From an uncultured Candidatus Saccharibacteria bacterium (GTDB lineage: Bacteria; Patescibacteriota; Minisyncoccia; UBA6257; JAGOQP01): 64,000 nucleotides of DNA. The notes below the pieces were generated by a model, which was not told where the DNA came from, did not search any database, and saw only the letters and a list, made by a program, of their open reading frames with translations. The stretch lies in contig CAYQSO010000002.1 of the NCBI GenBank assembly GCA_964420205.1, forward strand, positions 7,765 to 71,764, in the 5' to 3' direction. A program made the translations under genes and the position numbers. Below are positions 3,042 to 54,810 of the stretch, piece after piece (positions within the stretch are counted from its first letter, which is position 1; the number at the start of each line of letters is the position of its first letter).

Positions 3042-3380
3042 CTATAAGTACATAATTGCAAGATAATTTATTAAGAGATGTGCTGTATTGTCTCTAATGA
3101 TATTTATCCAAACTATCAACCAAACTGGTCTATCAGATTTATTACTATTAAAATAGTTTATTATATTATCTATATACTCACCAAATTTAATATGATCTAT
3201 TATAGCATGCGATAAACATATAACGAGCAAAGCTAATGAACTTTGTGTAATAAGTAAAAATGGTAAGATATATGTCGCAGCATGTTGTAATGCTAATCCG
3301 AAATTCTCTTTTTTACCAAGTGCCTGCCTATCTGTTTGTAGCCAATAGTCACCTATCAAATGAGCTATTAATTGCTCCAT
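3042..3380 (-). CDS. small integral membrane protein
   Basis: Three hydrophobic helices (YILPFLLITQSSLALLVICL, VWLIVWINII, LLINYLAIMYL); overlaps the QueC-like gene by 32 nt. Confidence 0.4.
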   Translation of the reverse strand: MEQLIAHLIGDYWLQTDRQALGKKENFGLALQHAATYILPFLLITQSSLALLVICLSHAIIDHIKFGEYIDNIINYFNSNKSDRPVWLIVWINIIRDNTAHLLINYLAIMYL

Positions 3381-5572: not shown

Positions 5573-5891
5573 TACTATTTTCCACTATTTAATATTACTA
5601 TAAATTAAAACACAGGTTAAAAGACTTGAACTCTTACTAAACGGGTTGGAGCCGTTTGTGCTACCGATTACACCAAACCTGCAAAATAAAACAGTAGTTT
5701 TTCATCAATACGGAACTATAAAACTACCAAAAATAGTCAGCGATTCTTTAACTAGTATTATTCGCTTAGGAACTTTGTTCAAAGTCTTAACAACCTTTAT
5801 CTTGTTAAGCACTTATCTAGAACAGGGAGAAACACTACCGTCTATTAATATTATAATAGCAAATTAAATATACTATGTCAAGCCTAAATTT

Positions 5892-6539
5892 TTAAAATTC
5901 TATCCCTTTTCTCGCAGGAATGGTTATTAACGTTGCCCCGCAATTAGGACAATAATTACTCCTATATTCAAAACTTCTTTTACAGACCTCACAATGCTTA
6001 TCGAAATAATGTTTAACACATCTAATGTCTGAAAATAAATCTGATATGTCTTTTATTTTATCATATAAAGAGTCTGACCATATCCTACCCGTTAAAACAA
6101 GCTCAAGATTAGATGGTTTTTCTCTTATAAAATCAAAAAACTGTTTCTGAGTAAGTAACCCAAGATTTAAAGCAGGTAATACTTCATCTAAAATCAAGAT
6201 ATTGAACGGGTGCTCATTATTTTCAGTGAGGGTTAGTTTTTCTACCATCAACGACCACGTATTTTGAACGAGCTCTTTATCTTCAGAAGTTTTATTATGT
6301 TCCATTACAATTCTATTAGAGTTATGAGACTGGATTATTGTTATTTTATCTTGGAAAAGACCACACGTCTTTATTTCACCATACTCTGTGTTGTCATCCC
6401 CTTTTAAAAATTGAACAATAAAAACTTTCCAATTTTTAGCTATTGACCGAAACGCAAGTCCAAAAGCACTAGTAGTCTTCCCTTTCCCTGAACCCGTATA
6501 GGTTTGTATGAACCCGTGATTTTTTAATTCATGTCCCAA
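5892..6539 (-). CDS. cobA: ATP:cob(I)alamin adenosyltransferase (CobA/BtuR/CobO family) with C-terminal zinc-ribbon extension
   Basis: TYTGSGKGKTTSAFGLAFRSI...VFIVQFLKG matches the CobA P-loop (TGNGKGKTTAAFG...VVQFIKG). ILILDEV and LVLTGR...VKHYFD match the remaining CobA blocks. An extra CEVCKRSF...CPNCG lies at the C-terminus. Confidence 0.8.
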   Translation of the reverse strand: MGHELKNHGFIQTYTGSGKGKTTSAFGLAFRSIAKNWKVFIVQFLKGDDNTEYGEIKTCGLFQDKITIIQSHNSNRIVMEHNKTSEDKELVQNTWSLMVEKLTLTENNEHPFNILILDEVLPALNLGLLTQKQFFDFIREKPSNLELVLTGRIWSDSLYDKIKDISDLFSDIRCVKHYFDKHCEVCKRSFEYRSNYCPNCGATLITIPARKGIEF

Positions 6540-6556
6540 AATCCATACCTACCTTT

Positions 6557-9500: not shown

Positions 9501-9928
9501 TTCCACCCACCAGTAGAGGATAATATATCTACGTTATCACCATCACTAAAATCATTAAATGACTTTATTCCTTGCTTTGTTATAAATTCTGTATCTGATT
9601 TAAAACAGTTAAAATTACTAGAGGCATATTTTTTAGAGCTCTCTGTTCCACCTACCCATAATGTTCTGCCGCTTAAAAATCCTTTAAGGTTAAATATCGT
9701 ATCAAATAATTGCTCTGCTTCTCTTATAGAAACTCCATGAACTAACGAACAATTATATTCTACTGCTCTCCTAACTGTCTCCCACCAATACTCTCTTCTA
9801 TTTTGTTCTGGTAAATATCTTGAATAAGTTCTATAATAAACAAACTCTCCCAATGAAGTCATCGGTGGATTCACATCTTTATATTTACTTATAAATTCTT
9901 CACTTAATAACATTAATTTATGCCTCAC
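6557..9928 (-). CDS. nrdJ: adenosylcobalamin-dependent class II ribonucleotide reductase precursor, interrupted by two inteins
   Basis: N-terminal EFVYYRTYSRYLPEQNRREYWWETVRR is the class II RNR signature; NPC...EI thiyl-radical site; 1123 aa. About 450 aa is accounted for by two Hint/intein insertions. Confidence 0.85.
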   Translation of the reverse strand: MRHKLMLLSEEFISKYKDVNPPMTSLGEFVYYRTYSRYLPEQNRREYWWETVRRAVEYNCSLVHGVSIREAEQLFDTIFNLKGFLSGRTLWVGGTESSKKYASSNFNCFKSDTEFITKQGIKSFNDFSDGDNVDILSSTGGWKTATIRNFGKSKLVKLIVGRGKREDIIYTTENHRWYVKRYKSEKKFIVKTTNELKNGDILREKRRYEQTNIVPCSVGIQHGMVFGDGTYNKKMNHCRVHLVDNKQELALYFTTGSQCTAGKYNQKVIYGLPNTWKNLPSLNSNVEYLMGFVMGLFATDGSYYKSNISISNSNKNTLDHIKSIFSILGIDCGKVELNRELSPYTGEYAPNYRLNLYSKHVPDDFFLNSKHKSSVKETSFEPSWVVKGVEETDIIEDVWCVVEPETESFTLANNILTKNCSFTKIDNTEDICELFYLLLLGCGVGFLDVIENISAFSNLNTSIRILSKEYSEKIDKEEFSTLQTTGNVATIVVGDSKEGWVGALRYLFKCLENPLLSTILVDFDNVRPEGAPLKTFGGYASGHVPLKILFEKIIGIVSRSNGSLKTIDILDICNLVGCAVQVGGVRRTALVCLFDKDDEDVRLAKQGIYYQNEDGAWVSDPNKTHRVSSNNSILFNKRPSKEELVEIFNSIKTTGEPGFINKQEAQRRLPTMEGLNPCCFTGDMKLLTSKGYKTFKELNEKQIDIINADGNISQGKVWFTGRKPCIRLKMSNNRIIKCTEDHIFMLEDGSNCKAKDLKGKCLIFQSYCKKNDSIRDYNTVTIEDISHIGEHDVFDFEEPLSHWGIVNGFMVHNCEILLPSKGFCNLVEINVKSFVKDGELNEEILNAVRTFTRASYRMACVNIELPEWKKVQEEHMLLGVALSGWQDAVNLLYDKSEENQVSILKLLRETARTEATKIANSLGRNTPKLVTTIKPSGTLSLLPTISPGVHHSHSPYYIRRVRINSGDPLLKVAEELGYNISPEVGQDPETCDTNVIDFYVKSPEGKNKYDISAIEQLETYKMFMRNYTDHNTSITVTVRDNEWAGVIDWVYENWDDFVGISFLPLYDAKYPLAPYEAITEEEYNKLNKQFGKITPELIAKYEKQYNLDDDLGSDCENGVCPIR
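7490..7894 (-). mobile_element. intein 2 in nrdJ (about 135-aa mini-intein at the NPC active site)
   Basis: NPC|CFTGDMKLL...GFMVHN|CEILLP: N-terminal Cys, C-terminal HN, +1 Cys, and no endonuclease domain. Coordinates by residue counting (aa 679..813). Confidence 0.6.
8672..9607 (-). mobile_element. intein 1 in nrdJ (about 312 aa, LAGLIDADG homing-endonuclease type)
   Basis: Starts with Cys right after NFN (CFKSDTEF...) and ends ...ILTKN before the CSF extein. LAGLIDADG-like blocks HGMVFGDGTY and LMGFVMGLFATDGSY. Coordinates come from residue counting (aa 108..419). Confidence 0.65.
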
Positions 9929-9945
9929 TTAACTAATAAACTCAA

Positions 9946-9974
9946 TTAAAAAATTGCTGTACCTTGAACAGCAA
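9946..9974 (-). terminator. candidate rho-independent terminator on minus strand
   Basis: Stem ttgctgt/acagcaa (9954..9974) with a 7-nt loop; the plus-strand A6 run at 9948..9953 gives a T-run after the hairpin on the minus strand. Confidence 0.35.
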
Positions 9975-10061
9975 CGAAACCCATTTTAATACACAATTAT
10001 CTTAAGAATCTTCGCTTATTTTCTCTTCTAGACTCCCCATAAAAATTCTTACTAACTATAT

Positions 10062-10397
10062 TTAGCCGTACCATCTACCTAACATTTGTGCTAATGCTAC
10101 CCTACTATTTAACTCTATTTCAATATCTCTCAAAATACACTCTATCTCATAAATAGCATTAAATATACTAACATTATCTATTTTAGATTCTATTCGTTTA
10201 ATATCATCTTTATAAAATAGTATACGAAATAATACAGACCCGTCAAAATCATAATAAATTAAATCAAAATACTTATCTTTTCTATTAAAAGATAACTTTA
10301 CCTCCCTCTTGCCCAACTTAGTATCAAAAATATTCTTCCCATTTAGCATCTTCGCTATTTTTTCTATTCTTTTAAAAGTTTCTTTATAATTACACAT
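10062..10397 (-). CDS. hypothetical protein
   Basis: 111-aa ORF co-oriented with neighbours; no recognisable motif. Confidence 0.3.
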   Translation of the reverse strand: MCNYKETFKRIEKIAKMLNGKNIFDTKLGKREVKLSFNRKDKYFDLIYYDFDGSVLFRILFYKDDIKRIESKIDNVSIFNAIYEIECILRDIEIELNSRVALAQMLGRWYG

Positions 10398-10413
10398 TTT
10401 TATCTACTTCTTT

Positions 10414-10725
10414 CTACTTATATTTATATTTATCATCATATTCAGGGGGTTCATATCCTAAATCTTTTAAGTCTCCTAAATACATCCCCTTATACTTTTT
10501 TTCTACCTCTGGTTCTACATAATAAGAATACATCTTACATTTAGTTTTATAAAACTCGCTACCTTTAATTAGTACATTGTGTGTTTCCAATTCCTGTAAT
10601 AGAGGGCAATATGGAATACCACTTTCGTCCCTATCTTTAGTATTATTTACACATGTACTACACTTATCTAACGGAGATATTGAAAGCTCATACTTCTTAG
10701 TACTTTTATTATATACAACTTTCAT
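10414..10725 (-). CDS. hypothetical Cys-containing protein
   Basis: 103-aa ORF with CSTC...CPLL...C cysteines and a KYKYK tail. Confidence 0.3.
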   Translation of the reverse strand: MKVVYNKSTKKYELSISPLDKCSTCVNNTKDRDESGIPYCPLLQELETHNVLIKGSEFYKTKCKMYSYYVEPEVEKKYKGMYLGDLKDLGYEPPEYDDKYKYK

Positions 10726-12625: not shown

Positions 12626-13960
12626 TCATTCTAAAACAATTACATTTGAAGTTACTAATTCGCTTTTTCTTGCTTCATTGTACTCTCTTTTGTTGTTGCT
12701 TGCAACAACTACTTGAGTTTGTTTTAACACTCCACAAGCTTTACTAACTCTAACAGAATTAAAGTTAGTTCCCGACAAGCCATCGGTACATGTATTCCTT
12801 ACTTCATTAAGTAGGATATAATCTTTACAGTTCTTGAGATTAACTGCTGCATTGTAGTCTCTTTGGTGCTCTGCACCACAATTACTACATTTCCAGTTTC
12901 TATCTTTTAATTTTAGTTCTTTATTCTTCTCTCCACAGCTACTACATAACTTACTACTTGGAAAGAATTTATTTACTTCTCTTACTTCTATATTATGTTT
13001 TGTACACTTCTGTACAAGAACTTGTTTAAAATAGTAAGGTTTATTTTGAAGAATAGTTTTAGAAAGATGTTTGTTCCTAACCATTCCTTTAATATTTAAG
13101 TTTTCAACTGTAACATATCTAGGTTTCCCCTTAACTATGTTATCTATACATTTATTAGTATAAGAGTTTCTTATTTGTTCTAACCTGTAGTACACTTTTT
13201 CTACTCTTAGTTTATTTTTAATATAATTGTTACTTACTTTATCTCTCTTTTCTTTCTTCTTAGCTTCGTACTTTCTACTTAAAGCTCTCTGTTCTCTTCT
13301 TAATTTCTTTTCTAACTTTTTAACTCTAGTAGTTTTATTAATGTTTTTGTATTCTTCTTTGTTAGAACATGTTAAGAAAGTACTTATTCCCCAATCAATA
13401 CCAATACCTTCATTACAATTCTTATTATCTTTACTACTCTCTTCATCTGTTATAACAGAGATGAAATATCTATTAGATCTCTTAGTTATTACTCCACTTA
13501 TTATTTTATTGTTTCCTGTAGGGAGGTATCCTTTCTCTTTCAGAGAAACCTCTCCGAACATAGGAATTTTAATTTTATGCCTAGAACATCTTATAGGTCT
13601 GTTTGCCTCTACTCTAACAAAATAAACTCCTGTCTTGTCTTTAGAAGCTTTTTTAAATTTAGGAAATCCTTTCTTTGATTTAAATGCTTTTTGGTAAGTT
13701 GAATTACAATTATCTATAGTCTTTCTAAGAGCTTTACTCCCTGCTTCTTTCAACCAATGTTTATCTTCGTTCTCTTTTAAATAAACATTATTAAACCATT
13801 TAGAGAACTCGTAGTTATTAAGATATTTTTCTCCTGCGGAGTAACGTTCTTTATTAACAGAAATAAAAAGATTCCAGACAAATCTACATGCAGAAATTGT
13901 AAGCTTGTAAAGCTTCTCCTGTTCTTTATTTAGTTTTACTTCTGTCTTGTAAGCTTTCAT
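12626..13960 (-). CDS. tnpB: TnpB (IS200/IS605-family OrfB; OMEGA RNA-guided RuvC nuclease), copy 1
   Basis: Canonical MKAYKTEVKLNKEQEKL N-terminus, C-terminal zinc finger CSSCGEKN...CSNCGAEHQRDYNAAVNL (RuvC-III). The track ORF extends to 14086, but Met43 at 13958..13960 is the likely start, judged by alignment to copy 2. Confidence 0.85.
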   Translation of the reverse strand: MKAYKTEVKLNKEQEKLYKLTISACRFVWNLFISVNKERYSAGEKYLNNYEFSKWFNNVYLKENEDKHWLKEAGSKALRKTIDNCNSTYQKAFKSKKGFPKFKKASKDKTGVYFVRVEANRPIRCSRHKIKIPMFGEVSLKEKGYLPTGNNKIISGVITKRSNRYFISVITDEESSKDNKNCNEGIGIDWGISTFLTCSNKEEYKNINKTTRVKKLEKKLRREQRALSRKYEAKKKEKRDKVSNNYIKNKLRVEKVYYRLEQIRNSYTNKCIDNIVKGKPRYVTVENLNIKGMVRNKHLSKTILQNKPYYFKQVLVQKCTKHNIEVREVNKFFPSSKLCSSCGEKNKELKLKDRNWKCSNCGAEHQRDYNAAVNLKNCKDYILLNEVRNTCTDGLSGTNFNSVRVSKACGVLKQTQVVVASNNKREYNEARKSELVTSNVIVLE

Positions 13961-13993
13961 TGATAAAAAGAAAAGTTCTAAGAAATTATTTTG

Positions 13994-14057
13994 TAAGCAG
14001 ATACAATTCTTCCTAGAACTAAAATTAATATAAATCTTATTTAATTGTATCTGCTTA
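13994..14057. repeat. perfect 15-bp inverted repeat (taagcagatacaatt / aattgtatctgctta) with 34-nt spacer in the presumed IS left end
   Basis: Read directly from sequence (13994..14008 and 14043..14057); lies between the real tnpB start and the over-extended track start. Confidence 0.7.
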
Positions 14058-14175
14058 ATATTATAATTTAACTTAAAATTTTTCATTTAGATTTCCCTGT
14101 AAAGGTATTAAAAATGAATATGTTTTACATATATTTGATTATGTTATGGGAGACTGTTCATTATCTTCTCTCCTC

Positions 14176-34363: not shown

Positions 34364-35056
34364 CTAAAAATCTGCCTCTCCAATTATTCTACAAAAAGCG
34401 TCTTGCACACTTTCACCGTTCTTCATTTTTCTGCTGAACCCAACAACCCCGCCTTTCCAACTTCCCTTATCACTCCCTATTTCCCTATCAAATTCTATGT
34501 TAAGATCTTGTATTACTCTTTTCGGAAACAATTTCCAAATACCTAATTTCTTTAGAATTCTCCAACTACCTATCCATCTTTCCATTGAACAAGTCGCTAC
34601 TGCTTTCTGATTTAATACATCTTCTGGTAAATGTTCTTTCCACGATGGTAAGCAGTATCTTAAACCAAATTGCCATGTCTTTAATCTATTCTCTTTAAAC
34701 CAATAACGTTCTTTCTCTGTTAAATTCTCCCAGTTTTCCTCTTCTATAATGTCTTCCTTCCACATACCATTTACTGTATAATACTCTTTCGCTACTTGCT
34801 CTATCATCCACGGCATATAAAATATTCGCCAGTTCTGTGGTATCTCTTTACCTATTGGTTTAAAACCTTCACAAACTCCCCAATGAACATATAAACTACC
34901 ATTATCATAAGATACCTCATATTTGTATGTAAGTAACCTATCTAATGATTTAGACACTGGAATGTACCACTTATCATTTATTTTTAAGCACCAAGGGGCT
35001 TTTTGCCCCACGATGCTCTTTTTCGTATAATTAACTAATGCAATACCAAATTTCAT
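34364..35056 (-). CDS. hypothetical Trp-rich protein
   Basis: 230-aa ORF. Confidence 0.3.
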   Translation of the reverse strand: MKFGIALVNYTKKSIVGQKAPWCLKINDKWYIPVSKSLDRLLTYKYEVSYDNGSLYVHWGVCEGFKPIGKEIPQNWRIFYMPWMIEQVAKEYYTVNGMWKEDIIEEENWENLTEKERYWFKENRLKTWQFGLRYCLPSWKEHLPEDVLNQKAVATCSMERWIGSWRILKKLGIWKLFPKRVIQDLNIEFDREIGSDKGSWKGGVVGFSRKMKNGESVQDAFCRIIGEADF

Positions 35057-35251: not shown

Positions 35252-36727
35252 CTAATCGTTAATTATCTCACCACCATCATCTAACTGTTTTTTAAACCAA
35301 TCAGGTTTAGAATTATTAATAGAAGTATTTTGATCTACTGCACCTACTACTTCTTTTCCATCTACCATAGAACCAAAAACCGTTGGTAATTGAATTCCAG
35401 CTTGTTTAGCTAAGTCCTGCATTTGTGGAATCGTACCCATAATATCTCTTGCAAGACCTGAAATAAGACCCTGACCATCTTTTCCACTACTATTTCCAGA
35501 ATCCCAAATAGTAAGTTTATCAATTTTAAGATTTTCAAGAGCTTTAACCTGTTCTTTAATAATAGGTTCAATCTTATCAAGCATTAAATATCCGTTTGCC
35601 ATTGCAGGGTTTCCTCCAGCAGCTTCTACTAGCTTTTTATAACCATCTGCTTGCGCTTTCAGAACCTTCTCAATACCATCTGCTTCTGCATAATACTTAG
35701 CTTTTACAGCGTCTGCCTCGCCTTGAGCTATTCTACGAATTCTCTCTGCTTCTGCTTCTGCTTGTACTGCTATTTTCTGTTTCTCAATTTCTTCTCTTAC
35801 AACTTCTTCTTTTTCTAAGCGAGCTTTTTCTGTAAGTTTCTGTGCCTCTGCTACAGCTTTCTCTGCTTCTGCCTTTGCTATGTCACCTTTTCTCATAGTT
35901 TCAGCTTCCTTAATCTTTAACTGAGCATTTGTTTCAGCAATCACCATTTTAGAAGTATTCTCACCTTCTACAGCAGTTGCATTTAATTCAGCAGTTTTTA
36001 TCCTCCTTTCCTGTTCTGCTCCCACCTGACCAATATTTGTCTGAGCCATTTGCTGTGCCACTTCAACTTCTCTACCTCTTACAGCTTTTGCCTCTCCTGT
36101 AGCACCGAACTGTTCCTGTTGTGCAACTTCTACTCTTGCTTTGTTTATTGCTTCTGAGGCCGCTTTCTTGCCTATGGCTTCAATATAACCAGACTCATCT
36201 GTGATATCTGTTATATTTACATTAATAAGACTTAATCCAATTTTATTAAGTTCTTCTTCTACATTAGTATTGATTTGGTTTAAGAATTTTTCTCTATCTT
36301 GATTAATTTCTTCTATAGTTAAAGTTGCTGCTACTAACCTTAGTTGGCCAAATATAATATCCCTAGCCTGTTCTACTATTTCCTTTTCTGAAAAATCTAA
36401 CAATCTTTCTGCTGCATTCTGCATAAGTTCATCTTTTGTTGACACTGCAAAAGTAAACGTAGAAGGAATATTAATTCTAATATTCGTCTTAGATAAAGCT
36501 CCTTTAAGGTCAATATCAGCTACCATAGGATGTAATGATAAGTACCCGTAGTCTTGTAAAATAGGAATTACGAATTTACCACCACCATGATAACTCTGAG
36601 CAGATTTACTACCTGTTTTACCAAAAACTACTAAAATCTGATTAGAAGAACAACGTTTATACTGCGCTATAAAAACAGTAGATGCTACTCCTAATCCACC
36701 TAAACCAAATAAACTTTCTAAAATCAT
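35252..36727 (-). CDS. flotillin-like SPFH/band-7 membrane protein (FloT/YuaG-like)
   Basis: N-terminal membrane anchor (LFGLGGLGVASTVFIA), SPFH domain and a long Glu-Ala-rich coiled coil (AKAEAEKAVAEAQK...AVQAEAEAERIRRIAQGEADA) characteristic of flotillins. Confidence 0.7.
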   Translation of the reverse strand: MILESLFGLGGLGVASTVFIAQYKRCSSNQILVVFGKTGSKSAQSYHGGGKFVIPILQDYGYLSLHPMVADIDLKGALSKTNIRINIPSTFTFAVSTKDELMQNAAERLLDFSEKEIVEQARDIIFGQLRLVAATLTIEEINQDREKFLNQINTNVEEELNKIGLSLINVNITDITDESGYIEAIGKKAASEAINKARVEVAQQEQFGATGEAKAVRGREVEVAQQMAQTNIGQVGAEQERRIKTAELNATAVEGENTSKMVIAETNAQLKIKEAETMRKGDIAKAEAEKAVAEAQKLTEKARLEKEEVVREEIEKQKIAVQAEAEAERIRRIAQGEADAVKAKYYAEADGIEKVLKAQADGYKKLVEAAGGNPAMANGYLMLDKIEPIIKEQVKALENLKIDKLTIWDSGNSSGKDGQGLISGLARDIMGTIPQMQDLAKQAGIQLPTVFGSMVDGKEVVGAVDQNTSINNSKPDWFKKQLDDGGEIIND

Positions 36728-36865: not shown

Positions 36866-37090
36866 TTATATTTCTTTTAATTTATTTTGCATAAGTAATA
36901 TTTCTTCTACGAACAAATCTCTCATATCTTTCTCATTTCTAAAATTATAAATTTTAACTACACCTGACTTATATACTATAGATACTATATAATCTGTTTT
37001 ATCTAAAAACTCACCAAAATCAATATCTACTTCCATTGAAAGTATCTCATCTATATCTATATAATAATCACTACAAATCTCAGTTAGCAT
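36866..37090 (-). CDS. hypothetical small protein
   Basis: 74-aa ORF. Confidence 0.25.
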   Translation of the reverse strand: MLTEICSDYYIDIDEILSMEVDIDFGEFLDKTDYIVSIVYKSGVVKIYNFRNEKDMRDLFVEEILLMQNKLKEI

Positions 37091-37170: not shown

Positions 37171-37392
37171 CTATCTTCCTTTATCTATGCATCCTATATG
37201 TTTATTAATCAATGCTTTCACATAATCATCTTCTCTATTATCTTTCAATTCTATTATAATGTTATCTTCAAATACCTTAACAGAAAAATATTTTAAGTCT
37301 AAATCAGCTATTAAATCTTTTAAGTTATCTTTAAAATCATCATGACCTAAATATTCAGAAGCACCTGAGTAAGCATTGAAAACTCTCCCCAT
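37171..37392 (-). CDS. hypothetical small protein
   Basis: 73-aa ORF. Confidence 0.25.
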   Translation of the reverse strand: MGRVFNAYSGASEYLGHDDFKDNLKDLIADLDLKYFSVKVFEDNIIIELKDNREDDYVKALINKHIGCIDKGR

Positions 37393-37664
37393 TATAAACT
37401 ACTTTCTACCTCCATAAATAATTTGCTTACGAAATAATCTAAAGAATTATATGTAATTTTAATATCTTTTATCATAATTTGAACAGGTTTTAAATCGTTA
37501 ATATATTTCAATAAATGCGATATATCATCATAATGAGTTGAATCTAGTTGAACTAATAAACTTATACAAGCTACTCCTGTCTTTTTAACAAACACTCTTT
37601 TTACAGATGGCCTTCTTTTTAATTCCTCTATCAAATATTCCTCACTTCCAAATTTAGACATCAC
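37392..37664 (-). CDS. hypothetical small protein
   Basis: 90-aa ORF, coupled to the ACP-like gene. Confidence 0.25.
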   Translation of the reverse strand: MMSKFGSEEYLIEELKRRPSVKRVFVKKTGVACISLLVQLDSTHYDDISHLLKYINDLKPVQIMIKDIKITYNSLDYFVSKLFMEVESSL

Positions 37665-38047
37665 ACCTTACCCACTAATATTTCGTAAATATCTCTAACA
37701 ATATATATGTCATCCCATTCTTCATCTGTAATTTCAATATTAAACTCATCTTCTAAAGCCATCACTAGCTCAACTTCATCTAAATAGTCTAAGGATAGAT
37801 CTTCATAAATATTAGAATCTATATCTATTACTATATCACTCCCTCTTAAATAAGTAAAGTACTTATAAAGAACATCATAAATTTTATTTAATACATCATT
37901 ATCTAAGGAATCTTCTCTATCATTTTTATAATAATTCTGATAGTAATAATAAACATCGTAACATTCTTCATATCTTGTAATATAATCGGAATAACTATGT
38001 ATTAATTTAATAAGTTGTTCTTTATTTAGTTTTTTAAGGTCTAACAC
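37661..38047 (-). CDS. acyl-carrier-protein-like protein (ACP helix-II look-alike; canonical phosphopantetheine Ser replaced by Tyr)
   Basis: C-terminal [25 protein letters not shown] aligns with E. coli ACP [25 protein letters not shown], but the DSL serine position is Tyr (DYL). Verified by manual back-translation. Confidence 0.5.
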   Translation of the reverse strand: [128 protein letters not shown]

Positions 38048-38268
38048 TAAGACTCTCCATATCTTCTGTAAGCTTCTGATTTAGGGTCAAATACCCCTTC
38101 GGATTCTAAATAAACCAATTTAACACACCCTAATTCCATACCAACGTCTTCCTGTACATATAAGTCTCCTAAGTAAGGTGACTTTCCTAATTGCTGTGAT
38201 AAATAACCTATCCAATTAGTTTTATTTTCTTTGTACGTTTTAGGATGAACCTTTACTACAAATCCCAA
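38047..38268 (-). CDS. hypothetical small protein
   Basis: 73-aa ORF. Confidence 0.25.
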   Translation of the reverse strand: MGFVVKVHPKTYKENKTNWIGYLSQQLGKSPYLGDLYVQEDVGMELGCVKLVYLESEGVFDPKSEAYRRYGES

Positions 38269-38353
38269 ATTTATTTCTCCTTAAATAAAAATAGTTTACT
38301 ATTTATTAGAATAATAAACTACTTTTTATCTTGTGTCAATACGTAGATTTATT

Positions 38354-41300
38354 TTAGAGCGGTTTCGGTATTAAAGTAGTACGTGATTCATCATCTACCC
38401 ATTTAAAATCGAATATTTGTCCAAAACGATACCCCAGTCCAATTGTAGCTTTAATAGGCAAAGGCCAATCTGGTAAGCTAAAATACATTATATCTTCTAT
38501 TAACCTAGTGTATTCTACTATTTTATCTAAATCAACATAAAGGTTCACTTCGTCATGTATTGTCGAAAGAAAAGCACACTCTTTTTCTTTTTCGGATATA
38601 CTAAATATTTTCTGATACATCTTCTTAAGAACTATACGCATAATATCCCCCGCACTTCCCTGGATTATGTGGCTGCTGACTCTTCTCTCAGCAGCAGATA
38701 TCATATTATTTGACTCTCTTTCACCTTTCCTAGGGTCTTCTGCTTCTCTTTCTATCCTCTCAGCCATATTTACATATGACCCGAAGCGTCTGGGCCTCCC
38801 ACAGAACGTAAATGTAGTTCCGGCATTATTCCACATCTTATTTATTTCATTTTGTCTCCATTGCATAGCCCCAAAAAAAGCTTCACAATAGGCATCATAA
38901 AGAGCTGTTGCGTGTTCTAACGGGATTCCAGAATTCTTAGATATGGAATCAGAATGACCACTATAATTTATAGCAAAATTCACAGCCTTTGCTATTTTTC
39001 GTAGCCCCTTGTTATAATTTTCTCTACCCCATATAGCGTACGCTGTCGCAGTATGTGGATCAATACCTTCCCTGAAATTTGATAACTTTACACTATCTTT
39101 ACTGTAATTAGTAAGGAGAACGTCTTCCTGTGAACTGTAATCCACACTCAAAATAATCTTTTTCTTACTATTAACCTTTTTAAATGATGGAACTACTACA
39201 CAATTTCTAATATTAAAATTAGGGGAGAACCCTTCTACTAAATAACAGTCTTCTGAGTCAGTGTGGTTTTTAATGTCTTCATCAGACATTAAATCAAAAC
39301 ACCAACCTAATATATTACCCTCTTTCTCAGATTTGTATGCTTTATAAATCGCTCCTGACGGTTTACTAAGATTCTGCGCATTAAGATCTATATAATAGGG
39401 GTTCTTAGTCTTCTTATCACTCTTACTCCCATTACCACTTGCAAATCTCCCTGAAGCGGTCCCAAAAAGTTTATATCTCATCCTACACTCATCTACCTTA
39501 GTCAGTTTATCAATGTAACTATTGATAGCCTTATTCATAGTAGAGTACTTCTGTATCTTCTTTAAAATACTTAACTTTTCATTTTCTTTTTTAAGCATTA
39601 TTTTTAATATTTTTAAAAAATATTTTCTATTGAGAATTCTACTTCCTTTTTTAAGCGGAACTAGTTTCTTATTTTTATTCTTTCTTTTCGCTCTGCTCAA
39701 TACTCTTATAGTATTGTTATTCAACTGCATTACTTGGAAATAGTCACTCCCATGTGCTTCTAGTATTTTATATAAATAAAACATATCTACGTGTTCTCTT
39801 ATATGTAATTCTGAAGCACAAAATCCTTTTGTAAAATAACCTTCTTCATTCTTTTCTAATTTTTCTATAATACCTCGTAAATCTGTTAAATTCTTAGAAA
39901 ATATTCTTGTACCATCTTTTTTACCAAAAGAAATCTGATCTGTATCTGTCCTTGCCCCAGTATCTATATTCTTAGATGCCATAGCATTTTTAAACTCTTT
40001 AGAAGAGGTACTAAGGTTGAATATTCCTATATCAAAATAATTATATATTTCCTCCTTAAGCTGAGTTATTACTTCGATAGCTTTTTCTTTATATTTTTTA
40101 GCTTCTTCTTTATCTATATAAAGTTTAGTATGTCCATAATAATCAATCCAATACCTTATAAGAGTGTTGTCTGATTTTATAACGTCAAATTTTTTACCGT
40201 TAAACTCTACTATATTGGGGTAAGTACTTATTAGTTTTTTAACTTTCGGATATAAATAGTAAAAAAGTGCCAAGCAGCAACATGAGTCTGCACAATTACC
40301 CGAAACCAAGACTTTACCATTTCTTCTAGTTATTAAAGTGTGATTTGGTACTTCTGCACAATAAACCACCCCACTATATGGAACAATTTCTCTCTGGTAT
40401 TTCTTGTATCTAACACTTTTCTGTCTTTGTGTGTACACACTATAAATTTGGTGCACATTTTCTCTTTTTATTACACGTCCTCTAATAACACAGTCTTTTT
40501 TAGGTGGTGCTTTTAAAGTTAATATACTAGTCCTACCACCCAACATTAATAGCTCTTGTAACTGATTAGCCATTTTGATAGATGTAGTATAAAAAACCCA
40601 CGCTGAGTCAGTTTTTCTAGACCCATCACAATAATTAAAATATTTTAGAAACTCATTTATACAGTACGAATCCATTTTAAAAATTTCAGGTGGAATATAC
40701 TTTTTCTGAGCCTTACCTTCCATATAAGGTTTTATCCAATTATAAAACTTTTTATTATAACAAACCCAGCTATTCCCTTTTTCTCTTTTGTTAGGGCGAA
40801 ACCCCATATTAGTTTCCATTAACATATTTTCTAACTCTTTTTTGAATTTATCGCTACAAACAGCCAGCCCTATGTGATAACAAACTTGCTTGTCGCCTCT
40901 TTGAACAATCCAACCATCTGCCAACAACGCACCTGTTAATCTGGCTAATTGTACAGGGGTTAAATTAACATTCTTACTAAAATGAAAAGAATCCTTCCCA
41001 CTACCTTTCTTCTCTGTGGGAGCTTTATAACCGCTTTCTTCAACTAAAAGATCTTTTGCCTGTTTGAATACCCATTCTTTATGTTGTGCTCGCTTAACTA
41101 GCATATTATGGTTGGGGGTAACACAAAAATCAAGATGTTTACTTTTATAAGAAATCATCTCTCCTTTATATTCATACGCATATAACCTTAGAGGACGCTG
41201 GTACTCTAATTCATCTTTTTCCACATTTACAGTAGCTAAAAGGTCTTCTCCATTATAATCTTTCCACATTACCCAACCATTTTCAGTCAATACTTCAGTC

Positions 41301-42319
41301 TGATCATCGTGGCATGCATAAATAACTGTGCTCCTATCGTAGGGGCATACATACTTGAATTCACCCGGAAATTCTAACATAGTACGTCCTAGATACAATT
41401 TAGCACTTAACTTAAGTCCTGCCATTTTTGACTCCGCATCAAAAAGATACGGAAGTATCATAGAGTCAAAAAAGTTAACTTTTTCAATAGAATAACCTTC
41501 TTTCTTATACATATTAAGGTCAAATTCAGCATTATGGATTACTACTAACTTTGCACTTGTTAAAGCTTTATATAAAATATCAAGGGACTTTTTTGCACTT
41601 CTCTCATTTTCTTCTTCTGTTAAAACATAACTAGAAACTTCCATTTCAGATAAATGCTTTTCAAAGTCTCCTATCATACAGTCTATACTACCAAGTTTAG
41701 CTTCTACTACTTCTTTTTCTAAATCTTTAGAATTTTCAAGAAAGTTTTCTTTATCTTGTTTTAACCCATCTATTAATTTTTGCGTCTCTTCTCTTTGTCT
41801 CTGTAATTCTAATTGCTCCCTTACTTCTTTGCTACATATATTTCCATTATGTAATGAATACTCATACGTCTTTACCGTAGTCTGACTTACTCTTCCTGTT
41901 TTAGTATATACTACATTTCCTTCTTCATCTAATTTAGGAACTTTTTCTGAACCCACTTCTTTTTTTCGCATATGTCTCAAAGGGCAATAAATCCCCGAAT
42001 TGTCGTCCAGTGAAAGAGAGAACCCTACAATGTAATCACCACCTTCTTCTCGAGGTGAACTGTTCAGTCCAGTAGTTTCAGTGTCAAACCCGATTATCTT
42101 ATCTTTACAAAGTTCTACGAATTCTTCCAACTCTTCTAAAGTATTAACAAGTTTATAGTCCCCTAAATAAATAAGATTCCCTTCCTCATCGTATTTATGA
42201 AACTTATTATCAAACTCTCTATAACCATGTACAGGTATATATTTGTACAACGTTTTACTGCTTTTTTTCTTTTGTTCTACCTTTTGTTGAACATATTTTT
42301 TCTTATAATCTTTTGTCAT
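38354..42319 (-). CDS. family A DNA polymerase (3'-5' exo plus polymerase domains) precursor containing an intein
   Basis: Exo I IGFDTETTGL; polymerase motif A LSVDYSSQE, motif B RKIAKAVNFAINYS, motif C LSTIHDEVN. The likely true start is MTKDYKK, 12 codons inside the track ORF (which begins at 42355). Confidence 0.85.
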   Translation of the reverse strand: MTKDYKKKYVQQKVEQKKKSSKTLYKYIPVHGYREFDNKFHKYDEEGNLIYLGDYKLVNTLEELEEFVELCKDKIIGFDTETTGLNSSPREEGGDYIVGFSLSLDDNSGIYCPLRHMRKKEVGSEKVPKLDEEGNVVYTKTGRVSQTTVKTYEYSLHNGNICSKEVREQLELQRQREETQKLIDGLKQDKENFLENSKDLEKEVVEAKLGSIDCMIGDFEKHLSEMEVSSYVLTEEENERSAKKSLDILYKALTSAKLVVIHNAEFDLNMYKKEGYSIEKVNFFDSMILPYLFDAESKMAGLKLSAKLYLGRTMLEFPGEFKYVCPYDRSTVIYACHDDQTEVLTENGWVMWKDYNGEDLLATVNVEKDELEYQRPLRLYAYEYKGEMISYKSKHLDFCVTPNHNMLVKRAQHKEWVFKQAKDLLVEESGYKAPTEKKGSGKDSFHFSKNVNLTPVQLARLTGALLADGWIVQRGDKQVCYHIGLAVCSDKFKKELENMLMETNMGFRPNKREKGNSWVCYNKKFYNWIKPYMEGKAQKKYIPPEIFKMDSYCINEFLKYFNYCDGSRKTDSAWVFYTTSIKMANQLQELLMLGGRTSILTLKAPPKKDCVIRGRVIKRENVHQIYSVYTQRQKSVRYKKYQREIVPYSGVVYCAEVPNHTLITRRNGKVLVSGNCADSCCCLALFYYLYPKVKKLISTYPNIVEFNGKKFDVIKSDNTLIRYWIDYYGHTKLYIDKEEAKKYKEKAIEVITQLKEEIYNYFDIGIFNLSTSSKEFKNAMASKNIDTGARTDTDQISFGKKDGTRIFSKNLTDLRGIIEKLEKNEEGYFTKGFCASELHIREHVDMFYLYKILEAHGSDYFQVMQLNNNTIRVLSRAKRKNKNKKLVPLKKGSRILNRKYFLKILKIMLKKENEKLSILKKIQKYSTMNKAINSYIDKLTKVDECRMRYKLFGTASGRFASGNGSKSDKKTKNPYYIDLNAQNLSKPSGAIYKAYKSEKEGNILGWCFDLMSDEDIKNHTDSEDCYLVEGFSPNFNIRNCVVVPSFKKVNSKKKIILSVDYSSQEDVLLTNYSKDSVKLSNFREGIDPHTATAYAIWGRENYNKGLRKIAKAVNFAINYSGHSDSISKNSGIPLEHATALYDAYCEAFFGAMQWRQNEINKMWNNAGTTFTFCGRPRRFGSYVNMAERIEREAEDPRKGERESNNMISAAERRVSSHIIQGSAGDIMRIVLKKMYQKIFSISEKEKECAFLSTIHDEVNLYVDLDKIVEYTRLIEDIMYFSLPDWPLPIKATIGLGYRFGQIFDFKWVDDESRTTLIPKPL
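40295..41314 (-). mobile_element. intein in DNA polymerase (about 340 aa, LAGLIDADG type) inserted in the Exo III motif (YA|C..D)
   Basis: VIYA|CHDDQTEVLTENGW...LARLTGALLADGW...FLKYFNYCDGS...VPNHTLITRRNGKVLVSGN|CADSCCCLALFYYL; the extein junction restores the Y-x-x-x-D exo motif. Coordinates by residue counting (aa 348..687). Confidence 0.6.
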
Positions 42320-42644
42320 TATTAAAATTAACTCCTGTACTAGATAAACCAACATTAGTGAAATTAAAATCTTTGTACTTCCACCAATCTTTTTTCTTCA
42401 TCATCTTTTTAACTTTTCTTGGGTACTTATCCCACCTACAGTACTTCCCGATACCTAATATGTAATTAAATATTATTAATTTTACTCTATTTTCTATATT
42501 AGTTTGAATTTCTCCCACACATTCGCCATAGGGCTCTCTTACAGCAGAAGTAGCAGTATCTCTTGACTCACATAAATATTGAGACGATATTCCTGTTGCC
42601 ATAACAATGTCTTGTCTTAATTTATATAATCTCTCTTCTATCAT
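42303..42644 (-). CDS. hypothetical protein
   Basis: 113-aa ORF upstream of the polymerase. Confidence 0.3.
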   Translation of the reverse strand: MIEERLYKLRQDIVMATGISSQYLCESRDTATSAVREPYGECVGEIQTNIENRVKLIIFNYILGIGKYCRWDKYPRKVKKMMKKKDWWKYKDFNFTNVGLSSTGVNFNNDKRL

Positions 42645-43828
42645 CTATTAATTCTCTCTACTACTTCTCCTACACCTAAATTCATTAAATATTCCTGAGC
42701 TGTTGCAGGTAAAATCCTAATATCATCTCTTAACTCTTTTTCTAATATCTCACACTGCTCCTGTTCTAAAATATTTTTCGCCATATTATCTATTAAACAC
42801 CTTTTATCAATATCTTTTAACTCTAACTTTATATCCATCCTACCATCTCTTAAAAAGGCTCGGTCTAATTTATCAATATGATTAGTTGTGAAAAAACAAA
42901 TAAGACTTTCCGGTGTATTTATTCCGTCAAAAATATTCAAAAGATTTGACAATGATAACCTACTGTCACTATCATTACTATTATATACAATACTACCTTC
43001 CCCCCCACTATTTCCTCTACTCTTACTCAAACATCTCTCATGTACGTCTACTCCCGCTGCATCAATGTCCTCTATGAGAAATATTGTATTTTTATTACAA
43101 GCCAATATTCTCTGTAAATCATTAAAACTACCCATAGTTTCTAAATTAACTATACATATTTTAAAACCAAAATAAGAGGCCAGCGCCCATACTAATGAAG
43201 TTTTACCTGTCCCTGGAGTTCCATAAAATAAATAGTTTCTCTTATAAGAAATTCCTTTAGACCTATAGGATTGTTTACTGTCTAAAAAAGAACTTATATC
43301 TTTTATTAAAAAATCTTTATCTTTCTGCGAGAGAGCTATTGTATTTAAAGGTCTTTTACCCTTTAAAAACCTAGTATACCCTGAAATAACTACAACGTCA
43401 TCCTCATAAGCAGAATCATTAAACTGCGTTACCTCATCTAATATAGTACTAACATCTTTAAGGTTTCCGAAAAAAACTTTTATTGTAATAGAATCTATTA
43501 CTTTAAAACTTCCATTTTTATCTATTCTCTCTTTTCCCACAGAACAAAATTTCCCGTTGATATTATAAAGAGACTGGCCATATCCTACACCCAAAAAAGT
43601 TTTTTCTACTTCTTCATTTTCTTTTAATTGATAGGTATTACAAAATACTACCTTCTGTTGCCCCAACCACCCCTCTAACTTATTAAATAATTCTTCATTT
43701 ACAGAGTTATCTATAGTAATCTGTTTATAAACTAAATTACTTATTAAATCAAATAAACTAGTTACATGATTTTTTAAAGTAACGAATATTAACCCGCCTA
43801 TTCCTAATTCTATTCCTGATATAGTCAA
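42641..43828 (-). CDS. BCS1-like AAA+ ATPase
   Basis: Walker A LFYGTPGTGKTS, Walker B IFLIEDIDAAG, and LSNLLNIFDGINTPESLICFFTTNHIDKLDRAFLRDGRMD matching the BCS1 sensor and arginine-finger region. Confidence 0.75.
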   Translation of the reverse strand: MTISGIELGIGGLIFVTLKNHVTSLFDLISNLVYKQITIDNSVNEELFNKLEGWLGQQKVVFCNTYQLKENEEVEKTFLGVGYGQSLYNINGKFCSVGKERIDKNGSFKVIDSITIKVFFGNLKDVSTILDEVTQFNDSAYEDDVVVISGYTRFLKGKRPLNTIALSQKDKDFLIKDISSFLDSKQSYRSKGISYKRNYLFYGTPGTGKTSLVWALASYFGFKICIVNLETMGSFNDLQRILACNKNTIFLIEDIDAAGVDVHERCLSKSRGNSGGEGSIVYNSNDSDSRLSLSNLLNIFDGINTPESLICFFTTNHIDKLDRAFLRDGRMDIKLELKDIDKRCLIDNMAKNILEQEQCEILEKELRDDIRILPATAQEYLMNLGVGEVVERINR

Positions 43829-52108: not shown

Positions 52109-53026
52109 CTAAGCTAAAATAGAAATAAGTTTGTTTATTTCTTTTTTCCACTCACCTTCTATGTAATCATAAGTAAGATTTATAAGGTTTGGGATATTCT
52201 CTATTGTGTTCATTGCATCTAATTTTTCTGGGAGAATTGGATTAAACACGAATCTACGATCTTCGTCTAGTAATTTTTGAATAGCATAGCTTGTCGTATC
52301 ACTTTGCCCATCATTCACTATGTCGAAGAGAGAAGATGCCCAATTAAATACTGTCCAATTCTTAATCTTATTAAAAGGTATTGAATAAGAATAACTACCT
52401 GTCCCAATACTTACTACTATTACTTCTTTATCTGGGAACATCTTTTTTGCTTCAATATACCCATATATTGTAGGATCATTGGCAAAAACACCCCCATCTA
52501 TCAGAGACATACTTCCTATCTTATAAGGTGGGAAGTATGTAGGAGCCGCACTAGTTGCACGAGCAAACTTCCATATCTCAATATCCTCATATATCTCTTG
52601 AGTAGAATTTATAAAACGGGCTTGTCTATCTTTAGTATCATACATAGTAGTTATGACAGGATTACTTAAAGTTGTTAAAGTATACTCACCTAGCTTCTCC
52701 TTTAAAATACCTTCGATGCCCTCTGAAGAATGTTTATGTTTGATATAATTTATAGGCCACTTAAAAATTCTTTTATCAAAAATTTTTTTAGCCGACTCAC
52801 CTGTAAAGAAATCTATTACGTCTTTTGTAGTATACCCTTGCCTACACGTATAAAGATAAGATAAAATACCCCCTACAGAAGTACCTATAAAAGCATCAAA
52901 TAAATCTCTCGGCTGCTTCCCCGTTAAATTAAAAATATGGTGAAGCAAAATAGCTTGTATAACTCCTTTACAACCCCCACCCGAAAGACTAAGTAATACT
53001 ACCCTATTTTTACCTATTTTCATCAT
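52109..53026 (-). CDS. patatin-like phospholipase
   Basis: Oxyanion loop SGGGCKG, nucleophile elbow GTSVGG (GxSxG), ATSAAPTYFPP and DGGVFANDP (catalytic Asp). Confidence 0.8.
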   Translation of the reverse strand: MMKIGKNRVVLLSLSGGGCKGVIQAILLHHIFNLTGKQPRDLFDAFIGTSVGGILSYLYTCRQGYTTKDVIDFFTGESAKKIFDKRIFKWPINYIKHKHSSEGIEGILKEKLGEYTLTTLSNPVITTMYDTKDRQARFINSTQEIYEDIEIWKFARATSAAPTYFPPYKIGSMSLIDGGVFANDPTIYGYIEAKKMFPDKEVIVVSIGTGSYSYSIPFNKIKNWTVFNWASSLFDIVNDGQSDTTSYAIQKLLDEDRRFVFNPILPEKLDAMNTIENIPNLINLTYDYIEGEWKKEINKLISILA

Positions 53027-53339: not shown

Positions 53340-54810
53340 TATTGTTCTCCTTACCTATTGACTTTTAATCTGTTGAACTAAAGACTCTATATACAAATCA
53401 AACTGCTCCAAATTAGTAACTTTAAACATAATTTATCCTACTTGAAGTTACTAATTCGCTTTTTCTTGCTTCTCCAGTATACCTGTTAGGTATACAATCG
53501 TACTCTCTTTTATCACCAGAGGCGACTACTTGAGTTTGTTTTAACACTCCACAAGCGTTAATTCCCGACAAGCCATCGGTATTTACACTATTTAACAATG
53601 TGTATTCTTTACAATTCTTAAGGTTTACTGCTGCATTGTAGTCTCTCTGGTGCTCTGCACCACAACTACTACATTTCCAGTTCCTATCTTTTAATCTTAA
53701 CATATTATTTTTAGTATTACAAATACTACATAATTTAGATGAAGGGTAAAATCTACCTACTTCTCTTACTTCTATATTATGTTTAGTACACTTTTGTGTT
53801 AGAGTTTGTTTAAAGTAATAAGGTTTATTTTGTAGGGTAGCTTTACTTAGATGTCTGTTTTTAACCATTCCTTTTACATTAAGGTTCTCAATAGAAACAA
53901 ATTTAGGTTTCTTCCTAACTATATCATCAATACACTTATTAATGTAGGAATTTCTTATTTGTTCTAACCTATAATGAAGTTTAGAAACTTTATCTTTATT
54001 CTTTATATAATTGTTAGAAACTCTATCTCTTTTCTCTTTTTTCTTGGCCTCGTACTTCCTATTTAAAGCTCTCTGTTGTCTTTTAAGATTTTTTTCTAGC
54101 TTCTTAATCTTAGTAGTCTTATTAATATTTTCGTAACTAGTACTATTAGAACATGTCAAATATGTACTAATCCCCCAGTCAGCACCAATTCCTTCATTAC
54201 AATTCCTGTAATCTCTCGTACTCTCCTCGTATACTATAACAGAGATAAAATACTTACTAGCTCTCTTAGTTATTGCTCCACTTATTATTTTATTAGACTC
54301 TATAGGAAGATATCCTTTTTCTTTTATGTGTATCTCTCCAAACATAGGAACTTTTATCTTGTGTCTCTCACATTTAATAGGTTTATCTAAAGATGCTCTT
54401 ACAAAATATACCCCTGTCTTATCAGTAGAAGCTTTTTTAAATTTAGGAAATCCTTTCTTCTCCTCCATAAATTTAACATAAGTATTATCACAATTCATCA
54501 TTGTCTTCCTAAGAGCTTTACTTCCAGCTTCCTTTAACCACTGTTTATCTTCATTCTCTTTGAGATACTCATTATTGAACCATTTACTAAAGTTGTAGTT
54601 ATTAAGATATTTTTCTCCTACGGAGTATCTTTCTTTATTAACAGAGATAAACAAATTCCAGACAAACCTACAAGCTGAAGTAGTAAGCTTGTAAAGCTTT
54701 TCCTGTTCCTTATTTAATTTTATCTCTGTTCTATAAGCTTTCATTAATGGGACTGTTCTATCTTTTATACTCATCAAATGTGTAAAATAATGTTATTAAA
54801 ATTTAATTTA
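53340..54810 (-). mobile_element. second TnpA-less IS605-family element (boundaries approximate)
   Basis: tnpB copy 2 with a 10-bp inverted repeat aattagtaac/gttactaatt flanking its stop codon (53411..53456) and a 3' flank partly shared with copy 1 (aaacataat). Confidence 0.45.
53422..54744 (-). CDS. tnpB: TnpB (IS200/IS605-family OrfB; OMEGA RNA-guided nuclease), copy 2
   Basis: MKAYRTEIKLNKEQEKLYKLTTSACRFVWNLF N-terminus; CSICNTKNN...CSSCGAEHQRDYNAAVNL C-terminus. Roughly 70 percent identical to copy 1 by eye. The track start at 54777 is 11 codons upstream of the canonical MKAY start. Confidence 0.85.
   Translation of the reverse strand: MKAYRTEIKLNKEQEKLYKLTTSACRFVWNLFISVNKERYSVGEKYLNNYNFSKWFNNEYLKENEDKQWLKEAGSKALRKTMMNCDNTYVKFMEEKKGFPKFKKASTDKTGVYFVRASLDKPIKCERHKIKVPMFGEIHIKEKGYLPIESNKIISGAITKRASKYFISVIVYEESTRDYRNCNEGIGADWGISTYLTCSNSTSYENINKTTKIKKLEKNLKRQQRALNRKYEAKKKEKRDRVSNNYIKNKDKVSKLHYRLEQIRNSYINKCIDDIVRKKPKFVSIENLNVKGMVKNRHLSKATLQNKPYYFKQTLTQKCTKHNIEVREVGRFYPSSKLCSICNTKNNMLRLKDRNWKCSSCGAEHQRDYNAAVNLKNCKEYTLLNSVNTDGLSGINACGVLKQTQVVASGDKREYDCIPNRYTGEARKSELVTSSRINYV

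Follow-up and report, generated by a model that had tools for sequence, protein, structure and literature searches.

A phage-like gene encoding an acyl carrier protein fold without the phosphopantetheine serine

Locus and gene arrangement

In the 64,000-nucleotide stretch of contig CAYQSO010000002.1 analysed here (referred to as the window), a small minus-strand gene encodes an acyl carrier protein (ACP)-like protein of 128 amino acids (aa), in which the serine that carries 4'-phosphopantetheine is replaced by tyrosine and the acidic docking helix of ACPs, helix II, is kept. The gene was taken from the list of open reading frames (ORFs). A GGAGAG ribosome-binding site lies 5 nt before its GTG start codon, and the encoded protein (the window protein) has an isoelectric point (pI) of about 4.05 and a net charge of about -20, canonical ACPs being as acidic. 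Coordinates of the gene, its segments and its neighbours are collected in Table 1.

Table 1. Features of the ACP-like gene and its surroundings in the window
Feature	Coordinates	Strand	Details
Serine-less ACP-like gene	37661..38047	(-)	128 aa plus stop, GTG start
N-terminal extension, residues 1-49	37901..38047	(-)	two predicted helices (9-25, 30-46); YYxxYYKxDRE motif conserved
ACP domain, residues 50-128	37664..37900	(-)	four predicted helices: I 50-63, II 88-102, III 108-112, IV 117-127
DxLD motif and recognition helix II, residues 83-102	37742..37801	(-)	acidic docking residues D87, D90, E93, E99, D100 and E101 kept
Tyr88 codon at the 4'-phosphopantetheine serine position	37784..37786	(-)	TAT; Asp (GAT) in the homologue P0003
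Upstream ORF	38047..38268	(-)	73 aa; stop shares 1 nt with the ACP-like start (TAGTG)
Downstream ORF	37392..37664	(-)	about 90 aa; begins within an overlap with the ACP-like stop (GTGTGATG)
Fourth gene of the overlapping array	37171..37392	(-)	73 aa; no family match
Fifth small ORF	36866..37090	(-)	beyond the overlapping array, before the flotillin/SPFH gene
Flotillin/SPFH gene	35252..36727	(-)	491 aa; Band_7 E 3.5e-29, Flot E 7.4e-7
Family-A DNA polymerase gene (PolA)	38354..42355	(-)	1333 aa; intein at about residues 262-694
Best sigma-70-like promoter match of the region	38311..38339	(-)	TTGACA-17-TATTAT, 11/12; lies after the PolA stop and before the first small gene

A sequence-only reading of this DNA, made by a model from the letters and the ORF list, had placed the gene in a run of five tiny genes beside a flotillin-like gene, and five such ORFs do lie between PolA and the flotillin/SPFH gene. 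Four of them, from 38268 to 37171, form one overlapping array. The flotillin/SPFH gene follows about 1 kb downstream of the ACP-like gene, with the fifth small ORF and intergenic gaps between it and the array. No family match was obtained for the upstream 73-aa ORF, which is missing at the homologous locus L001 described below, or for the downstream ORF, which is not kept at L001, where a Cys-rich ORF comes next. The promoter match listed in Table 1 is suggestive only as a putative promoter of the small-gene array, the number of promoter-like matches in the region as a whole being not above shuffle expectation.

ACP homology and predicted fold

A phmmer search of PDB sequences matched 121 ACP chains, with a Thermus ACP as the best match (E 2e-9) and E-values for PDB ACPs of 2e-9 to 6e-7, and several of the alignments paired query residues ~50-127 with ACP residues ~4-78. 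Many ACP chains in the PDB match lists are structural subunits of large complexes. The profile PHROG 5934, annotated as 'acyl carrier protein', matched at E 4.5e-12, with residues 74-123 aligned to profile positions 34-83 of 93; the protein thus combines the significant profile match and the viral genome by which membership in this family was judged. NCBIfam AcpP models gave E-values of 6.6e-13 to 1e-9, yet scored far under their curated cut-offs (TIGR00517, 44.2 bits against 70.45; NF002148, 48.3 against 71 bits), and Pfam PP-binding (PF00550) reached 18.9 bits, below its gathering score of 20.8. Since the E-values are significant and the curated cut-offs are not reached, these scores identify the window protein as a homologue of AcpP rather than an equivalog, and the similarity to ACPs as homology, not chance. 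Membership in DUF1493 (PF07377) was considered and rejected (16.2 bits against a gathering threshold of 21, E 0.017); the literature on this family was uninformative, and the match was taken as weak cross-similarity between ACP folds.

An AlphaFold2 model computed from a 101-sequence alignment had a mean predicted local distance difference test (pLDDT) score of 87.5 and a predicted template modelling (pTM) score of 0.70. The four helices of the ACP domain, modelled with block-mean pLDDT of 88-98, reproduce the four-helix ACP fold of AcpP from type II fatty acid synthase (FAS). The sequence-only reading had given the C-terminal sequence correctly and had asked for superposition of a predicted structure on ACP, with the lack of a four-helix fold as the outcome that would speak against it; the model contains the full four-helix domain. 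Its description of the protein as a mere look-alike of ACP helix II was too narrow, the ACP-related part being a complete domain of about residues 50-128.

Loss of the serine and retention of helix II

In the HMMER alignment, LDYLD of the window protein stands opposite the DSLD motif of ACPs, which places Tyr88, encoded by TAT, at the position of the phosphopantetheine serine, as had been read from the letters alone. Serine occupies this position in 87 of 99 related proteins. The D-S-L serine that AcpP carries at the N-terminus of helix II is lacking both here and in the metagenomic homologue P0003 (Tyr88 and Asp87, respectively). To judge by the codons, an assembly or sequencing error is excluded as the cause of the serine loss, because this independent homologue is also without Ser (GAT, Asp).

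Of the 20 residues from 83 to 102, which cover the DxLD motif and recognition helix II, 15 agree with E. coli AcpP, compared with 8 of 29 flanking aligned residues, and the near-match of the C-terminal part to the E. coli recognition helix is thereby borne out. The acidic residues D87, D90, E93, E99, D100 and E101 correspond to D35, D38, E41, E47, E48 and E49 of E. coli AcpP, so that the acidic helix II characteristic of AcpP is present. When D35, E41 and E47/E48 were neutralised in E. coli ACP, modification by AcpS was lost in vivo (bioRxiv 10.1101/2025.01.28.635281).

Acyl carriage by the window protein appears very unlikely, because the serine is absent in both members of the family, Ser85, the alternative serine pointed to in the sequence-only reading, is not conserved, and the scanned ORFs contain no gene for a phosphopantetheinyl transferase (PPTase) or for FAS. 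Pfam scans of essentially all window ORFs of >=100 aa returned no PPTase, FAS or acyltransferase gene, about 19 kb of the 83-kb contig lying outside the window; the fab/pls or PPTase neighbourhood of AcpP genes is thus missing among the ORFs scanned. A functional carrier modified elsewhere by an unusual transferase, at Ser85, Ser78 or Tyr88, is scarcely credible. Ser85 stands three residues ahead of Tyr88 and Ser78 is common to the window protein and P0003, which would suit such a carrier, but P0003 has Trp where the window protein has Ser85, 69 of 99 related ACPs have Gly there, and Ser78 falls in the loop that precedes helix II (at about A26 of E. coli ACP in the register of the PDB alignments) and not at the helix II N-terminus, where PPTases act. 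Tyr88, for its part, is replaced by Asp in P0003, and the lack of a PPTase among the scanned ORFs also speaks against modification at any of the three residues.

The homologue P0003 and the N-terminal extension

When 1.84 billion representative proteins were searched exhaustively with phmmer, 1,615 matches were obtained, among which P0003 (127 aa, 47% identical to the window protein, E 7.9e-24) was the only full-length relative. Its gene is located on a 998-bp Logan contig (locus L001), 13 nt downstream of the end of a PolA whose C-terminus is 79% identical to that of the window PolA. The position after the polymerase gene is conserved in the window and L001, the genes on the other side differ, and PolA is the only neighbour that the two loci share. 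In both loci the ACP-like gene has an intact reading frame and a good ribosome-binding site.

The AlphaFold model of P0003 has the same layout as that of the window protein, with two N-terminal helices followed by the ACP fold. In the window-protein model the N-terminal helices were predicted at pLDDT 62-84. No counterpart of this lineage-specific extension, residues 1-49, was found in Pfam, PHROG, PDB or BFVD, and these residues contain 10 of the 18 Tyr of the protein. A Tyr-rich N-terminus unrelated to ACP had been read from the sequence, and both properties hold; its length, given there as 60 aa, is about 49 aa.

Identity between the window protein and P0003 is 47% in the N-terminal extension, equal to that of the ACP domain taken as a whole; by segment of that domain it is 36% in helix I and the following loop, 65% in the DxLD motif and helix II, and 42-43% in the remaining segments. 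With the ACP-like gene at 46% identity over its length and the adjacent PolA at 79%, the docking helix and the extension are, on this comparison, the parts preserved in a gene that evolves much faster than its polymerase neighbour.

Further members of the family were not recovered by several other routes. A word-indexed search of 5.8 billion proteins returned the window protein itself and one ordinary ACP, a search seeded with P0003 returned P0003 alone, and a two-sequence alignment run against IMG/VR and GTDB found ordinary ACP domains only. Scans of IMG/VR and of Joint Genome Institute (JGI) metagenomes based on PolA found nothing. A degenerate DNA pattern for YYxxYYKxDRE hit 24 stretches in the JGI data and none in IMG/VR, without a new family member; the sole weak tblastn match among the 24 (L146) was discarded as chance, since the frame it falls in is non-coding and lies opposite a sugar epimerase-like ORF.

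Phage-like context of the window

The window has about 30% GC, with every gene on the minus strand. It is phage-like, because the genes lie on a single strand, a replication module is present along with a tail protein, and the scans revealed no cellular genes. The module serves replication and nucleotide metabolism: it comprises the intein-containing PolA, an AAA ATPase (42641..43828), a DnaB-like helicase, a split helicase of SNF2 type and a 5'-3' exonuclease, further dUTPase, ThyX, a ligase, a RecA-like protein and methylases, and the ribonucleotide reductase and adenosyltransferase described below. When PolA was compared by tblastn with known phages, only the intein part matched, the inteins there sitting in unrelated genes. 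No close relative of the polymerase itself was found in INPHARED or IMG/VR, and megablast of 10 kb of the window against INPHARED gave no match.

Several other genes of the window were recorded. A class II (B12-dependent) ribonucleotide reductase of 1123 aa with intein splicing and LAGLIDADG domains is encoded at 5892..9928 (-), and directly downstream of it lies a corrinoid adenosyltransferase gene (CobA/BtuR, E 4.3e-41); the enzyme that activates the cofactor of the reductase thus seems to be provided by the phage itself. The 230-aa product of 34364..35056 (-) matched PF25187, 'CBASS inhibitor Acb3', above the cut-off (E 1.5e-21), as well as PHROG 7203, and is likely a protein directed against the cyclic oligonucleotide-based anti-phage signalling system (CBASS). 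A patatin-like phospholipase (PF01734, E 1.1e-27), an enzyme type that also serves as a CBASS effector, is encoded at 52109..53026 (-). For SPFH proteins, the class of the protein encoded next to the small-gene array, detection by mass spectrometry among the proteins of jumbo phages has been reported (PMC7760394). Two TnpB/Cas12f-like genes with HTH_OrfB_IS605, OrfB_IS605 and TNB domains are located at 12626..14086 (-) and 53422..54777 (-). The best tblastn matches of TnpB, 42-45% identical, were in Clostridia plasmids and in the Clostridium phages c-st and D-1873, a weak hint at a low-GC Firmicute host. A single tRNA-Trp (CCA) gene lies at 5610..5683 (-).

Serine-less ACP-like proteins elsewhere

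Among the 101 top relatives in the representative search, 14 lack the serine, with the query and P0003 included; the replacements are D in five, E in three, Y in two, and W, Q, R, K and P in one each. Of 47 genuine matches to the query among IMG/VR loci, 11 are without the serine and fall into four lineages: L005 (E), L006 (A), the L027 group (Y) and L038 (D). In GTDB the serine was kept in all of the best 80 of at least 375 confirmed matches, a comparison biased by the fact that these are the best-scoring ones, the viral list also including weak matches. Further serine-less proteins are P0043 (W), P0069 (D), P0145 (D), P0053 (R) and P0047 (Q), together with L164, which joins L005 in one lineage (E/D). 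The window protein, P0043, P0069 and P0145 have in common a W at the position equivalent to A59. A role of Trp111 as a plug of the acyl pocket was considered and set aside, W being found in 5 of the 14 proteins that lack the serine and in 9 of the 87 that have it, which is weak evidence from a query-biased sample.

The genomic contexts of eight serine-less representatives were inspected, and seven of them are runs of small same-strand genes without Pfam matches, two of these with phage markers (Dam in one, Pam3_Gp34 and an AEP primase in the other). The ACP-like proteins of L005 (DELD) and L164 (P0111, DDLD) are 64% identical to each other and unrelated to the lineage of the window protein. 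They share a conserved gene order (L005 9983..12822, L164 2732..5551), in which a Pam3_Gp34-like gene is followed by the ACP-like gene and then by an AEP primase-polymerase/PriCT_1 gene of about 860 aa, the two AEP primases being 74% identical.

An 83-aa PP-binding protein with GADYLE (Ser to Tyr) was encountered in L027, L029, L030, L032, L033, L034, L037 and L045 (for L032, at 9914..10165). These contigs are viral or prophage in nature and high in GC, several of them come from isolate genomes, and the gene lies near GcrA-like and terminase-small-subunit-like genes. In L006, a DUF3307 gene (10225..10599, E 3.6e-13) is found immediately downstream of the serine-less ACP-like gene (DALD); the window also encodes a DUF3307 membrane protein (3042..3380, (-)), and this co-occurrence with the unrelated L006 may be coincidence. 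The eighth of the inspected contexts is cellular: P0046 (L159 4833..5081), an ACP with DYLD (Ser to Tyr), is encoded directly after fabD in the canonical acpP position; it may reflect a degenerate FAS system in a reduced genome.

The distribution suggests that serine-less ACP-like proteins are a recurrent and undescribed viral theme; no papers on serine-less phage ACPs, ACP anti-defence proteins or ACP-like DNA mimics were found in the literature searched.

Comparison with known systems

With AcpP of bacterial type II FAS (PF00550, TIGR00517), the window protein shares the four-helix fold, as modelled, and the acidic helix II. It differs in having Tyr for Ser, a 49-aa two-helix extension and scores below the cut-offs, and its gene lies in a phage replication/accessory region that is devoid of fab genes and of a PPTase among the window ORFs scanned.

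Phage ACPs, represented by PHROG 5934 and 4154, Yersinia phage fHe-Yen9-04 g153 and the ACP of Prochlorococcus phage P-HM1, are likewise viral proteins of the ACP fold, and some of them also have N-terminal extensions (L009; BFVD matches of 134-162 aa). The extension of the window protein is unrelated to these, the PHROG and BFVD matches spanning the ACP domain only, and the named phage ACPs that were inspected keep the DSL serine, whereas the window protein does not. No demonstrated function for any phage-encoded ACP was found in the literature searched. The other serine-less phage-like proteins described above resemble the window protein in having an ACP fold or PP-binding match and in being encoded in small phage-like gene arrays; they differ in their length of 74-84 aa and in lacking an N-terminal extension, and they are at most about 40-50% identical over the ACP domain.

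A precedent for serine loss is the mitochondrial ACP (mACP) of Plasmodium falciparum, which has Phe113 in place of Ser and binds Isd11-Nfs1 without cofactor or acyl chain (PMC8547962). The window protein similarly has an unmodifiable, aromatic residue in place of the serine (Tyr88; Asp87 in P0003). The serine was lost convergently in these two unrelated lineages, and whereas the Phe is a required contact in the Plasmodium protein, the position varies (Tyr/Asp) in the window family. Pfam Complex1_LYR, the family of an LYR partner, was not among the matches of the window protein at E-values up to 10, and the neighbouring small ORFs are without family matches.

Obligate apo-ACP, or ACP with Ser changed to Ala, acts as an inhibitor of sn-glycerol-3-phosphate acyltransferase and suppresses growth when over-expressed, according to a passage in PMC4736557 that cites Keating 1995. 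The window protein resembles it in that its docking surface appears to be intact and that no holo form could be made from it. The two differ in that obligate apo-ACPs are laboratory constructs or a state of imbalance, not evolved inhibitors, and in the N-terminal module added by the window protein.

Proposed function and alternatives

We consider it likely, with good confidence, that the window protein is a non-acylatable protein of ACP fold that works through protein-protein docking, because the DxLD and helix II surface is kept in sequence and model while the cofactor serine is lost. From this we infer docking by helix II, a host ACP-client protein as the partner and an inhibitory effect; that the phage protein is a dead-end competitor for such a host client, an evolved apo-ACP mimic, is plausible and is put forward tentatively. 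The protein would be expressed from the small-gene operon just after the polymerase gene and would fill the basic ACP-binding patch of host clients (AcpS, FabD/FabH, PlsX-type acyltransferases or similar). Never loaded with the cofactor, it would act as a dead-end competitor of host ACP, and its N-terminal hairpin may add affinity, specificity or a second interface. Counted in favour of this proposal were the growth-inhibitory effect of obligate apo-ACP, as reported in the part of PMC4736557 that cites Keating 1995, and the genetic surroundings. The orphan small genes around the ACP-like gene and the Acb3-like, likely anti-CBASS gene about 2.6 kb downstream, past the flotillin gene, make up a setting typical of phage host-interaction genes. 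The decoy or scaffold proposed in the sequence-only reading stands in part: alignment and model agree with a kept docking helix and no acylation.

Several observations weigh against a competitor of host ACP. No docking partner was identified, and the only hint at a host is the Clostridia-like affinity of the TnpB gene. The residue at the serine position is apparently not a tuned contact of the kind formed by Phe113 of Plasmodium mACP, because it is Tyr in the window protein and Asp in P0003. The acidic residues of helix III are partly lost in P0003 (TDAVWYNAK). The sole conserved neighbour is a phage polymerase, and in a different serine-less phage lineage the ACP-like gene is found in synteny with a primase gene, both of which fit a phage-internal partner equally well. 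What a phage would gain from blocking lipid synthesis is unclear, and with a family of two members the conservation statistics are thin.

A phage-internal partner is the core of the main alternative, a serious one, in which the serine-less ACP fold would belong to a phage complex, plausibly the replisome, in a structural or regulatory role, serving the polymerase or some other replication protein as docking adaptor. This is rather unlikely on present evidence, although the conservation of PolA as the only neighbour and the L005/L164 lineage, whose ACP-like gene immediately precedes an AEP primase-polymerase gene in both contigs, argue for it, and cofactor-independent or structural ACPs have precedents in MukBEF, mitochondrial complex I, the iron-sulfur cluster (ISC) complex and Plasmodium mACP. 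Most unrelated small early phage genes likewise sit by replication genes, however, the differing genes on the other flank in the window and L001 suggest a variable accessory region, and the remaining serine-less contigs with readable context show no link to replication. Nor is any family-A polymerase known to have an ACP-like subunit. Somewhat doubtful as well, as a broader statement, is that serine-less ACP-fold proteins form a recurrent phage class that uses the docking helix without the cofactor, either jamming host ACP hubs (AcpS, lipid synthesis) or serving phage replication enzymes, with the window protein as a two-module member.

Descent into a decaying or neutral remnant of a phage ACP, or a generic acidic protein (a DNA mimic or anti-restriction protein) of incidental ACP ancestry, is improbable. 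The strongly negative charge and low pI, the unconstrained residue at the serine position (Tyr against Asp) and the extreme rarity of the family (two members in 1.84 billion representatives) would fit such an origin, but both copies have intact frames and good ribosome-binding sites, conservation reaches 47% in the extension and 65% in helix II although the gene otherwise diverges fast, and the fold is predicted with confidence; canonical ACPs are equally acidic, so that charge alone does not indicate a DNA mimic. It is quite improbable that the protein takes part in membrane or lipid remodelling together with the flotillin/SPFH protein and the patatin-like phospholipase, for example by steering a lipid-handling enzyme at membrane microdomains. 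Both genes are present in the window, the former about 1 kb downstream, and an SPFH protein and an ACP were both seen by mass spectrometry in Eneladusvirus jumbo phages (PMC7760394). Yet without the serine acyl groups could be neither accepted nor donated, intergenic gaps and one more small ORF stand between the flotillin gene and the array, and the L001 fragment is too short to reveal any flotillin linkage. A linkage of SPFH and ACP genes, suggested by the mass-spectrometric report, was also rejected for Yersinia phage fHe-Yen9-04, no SPFH being annotated within 12 kb of its ACP gene.

Significance

ACP is among the most connected bacterial proteins, with dozens of enzymes to which it docks through helix II. 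ACP-like proteins of phages and structural ACPs without the serine are already known; what is new is the serine-less form in phages, which is undescribed in the literature searched. The serine loss extends beyond the window family to at least four other lineages in viral contigs and to several more in phage-like metagenomic contigs. If the replisome role were true, a case from a bacterial virus would join the short list of cofactor-independent structural ACPs beside Plasmodium mACP. If the preferred reading as an apo-ACP mimic is true, an evolved, cofactor-less phage mimic of ACP would represent a natural inhibitor or adaptor of the ACP hub, and it may reveal an ACP-dependent step that is important in infection or provide a template for inhibitors of ACP-client interfaces.

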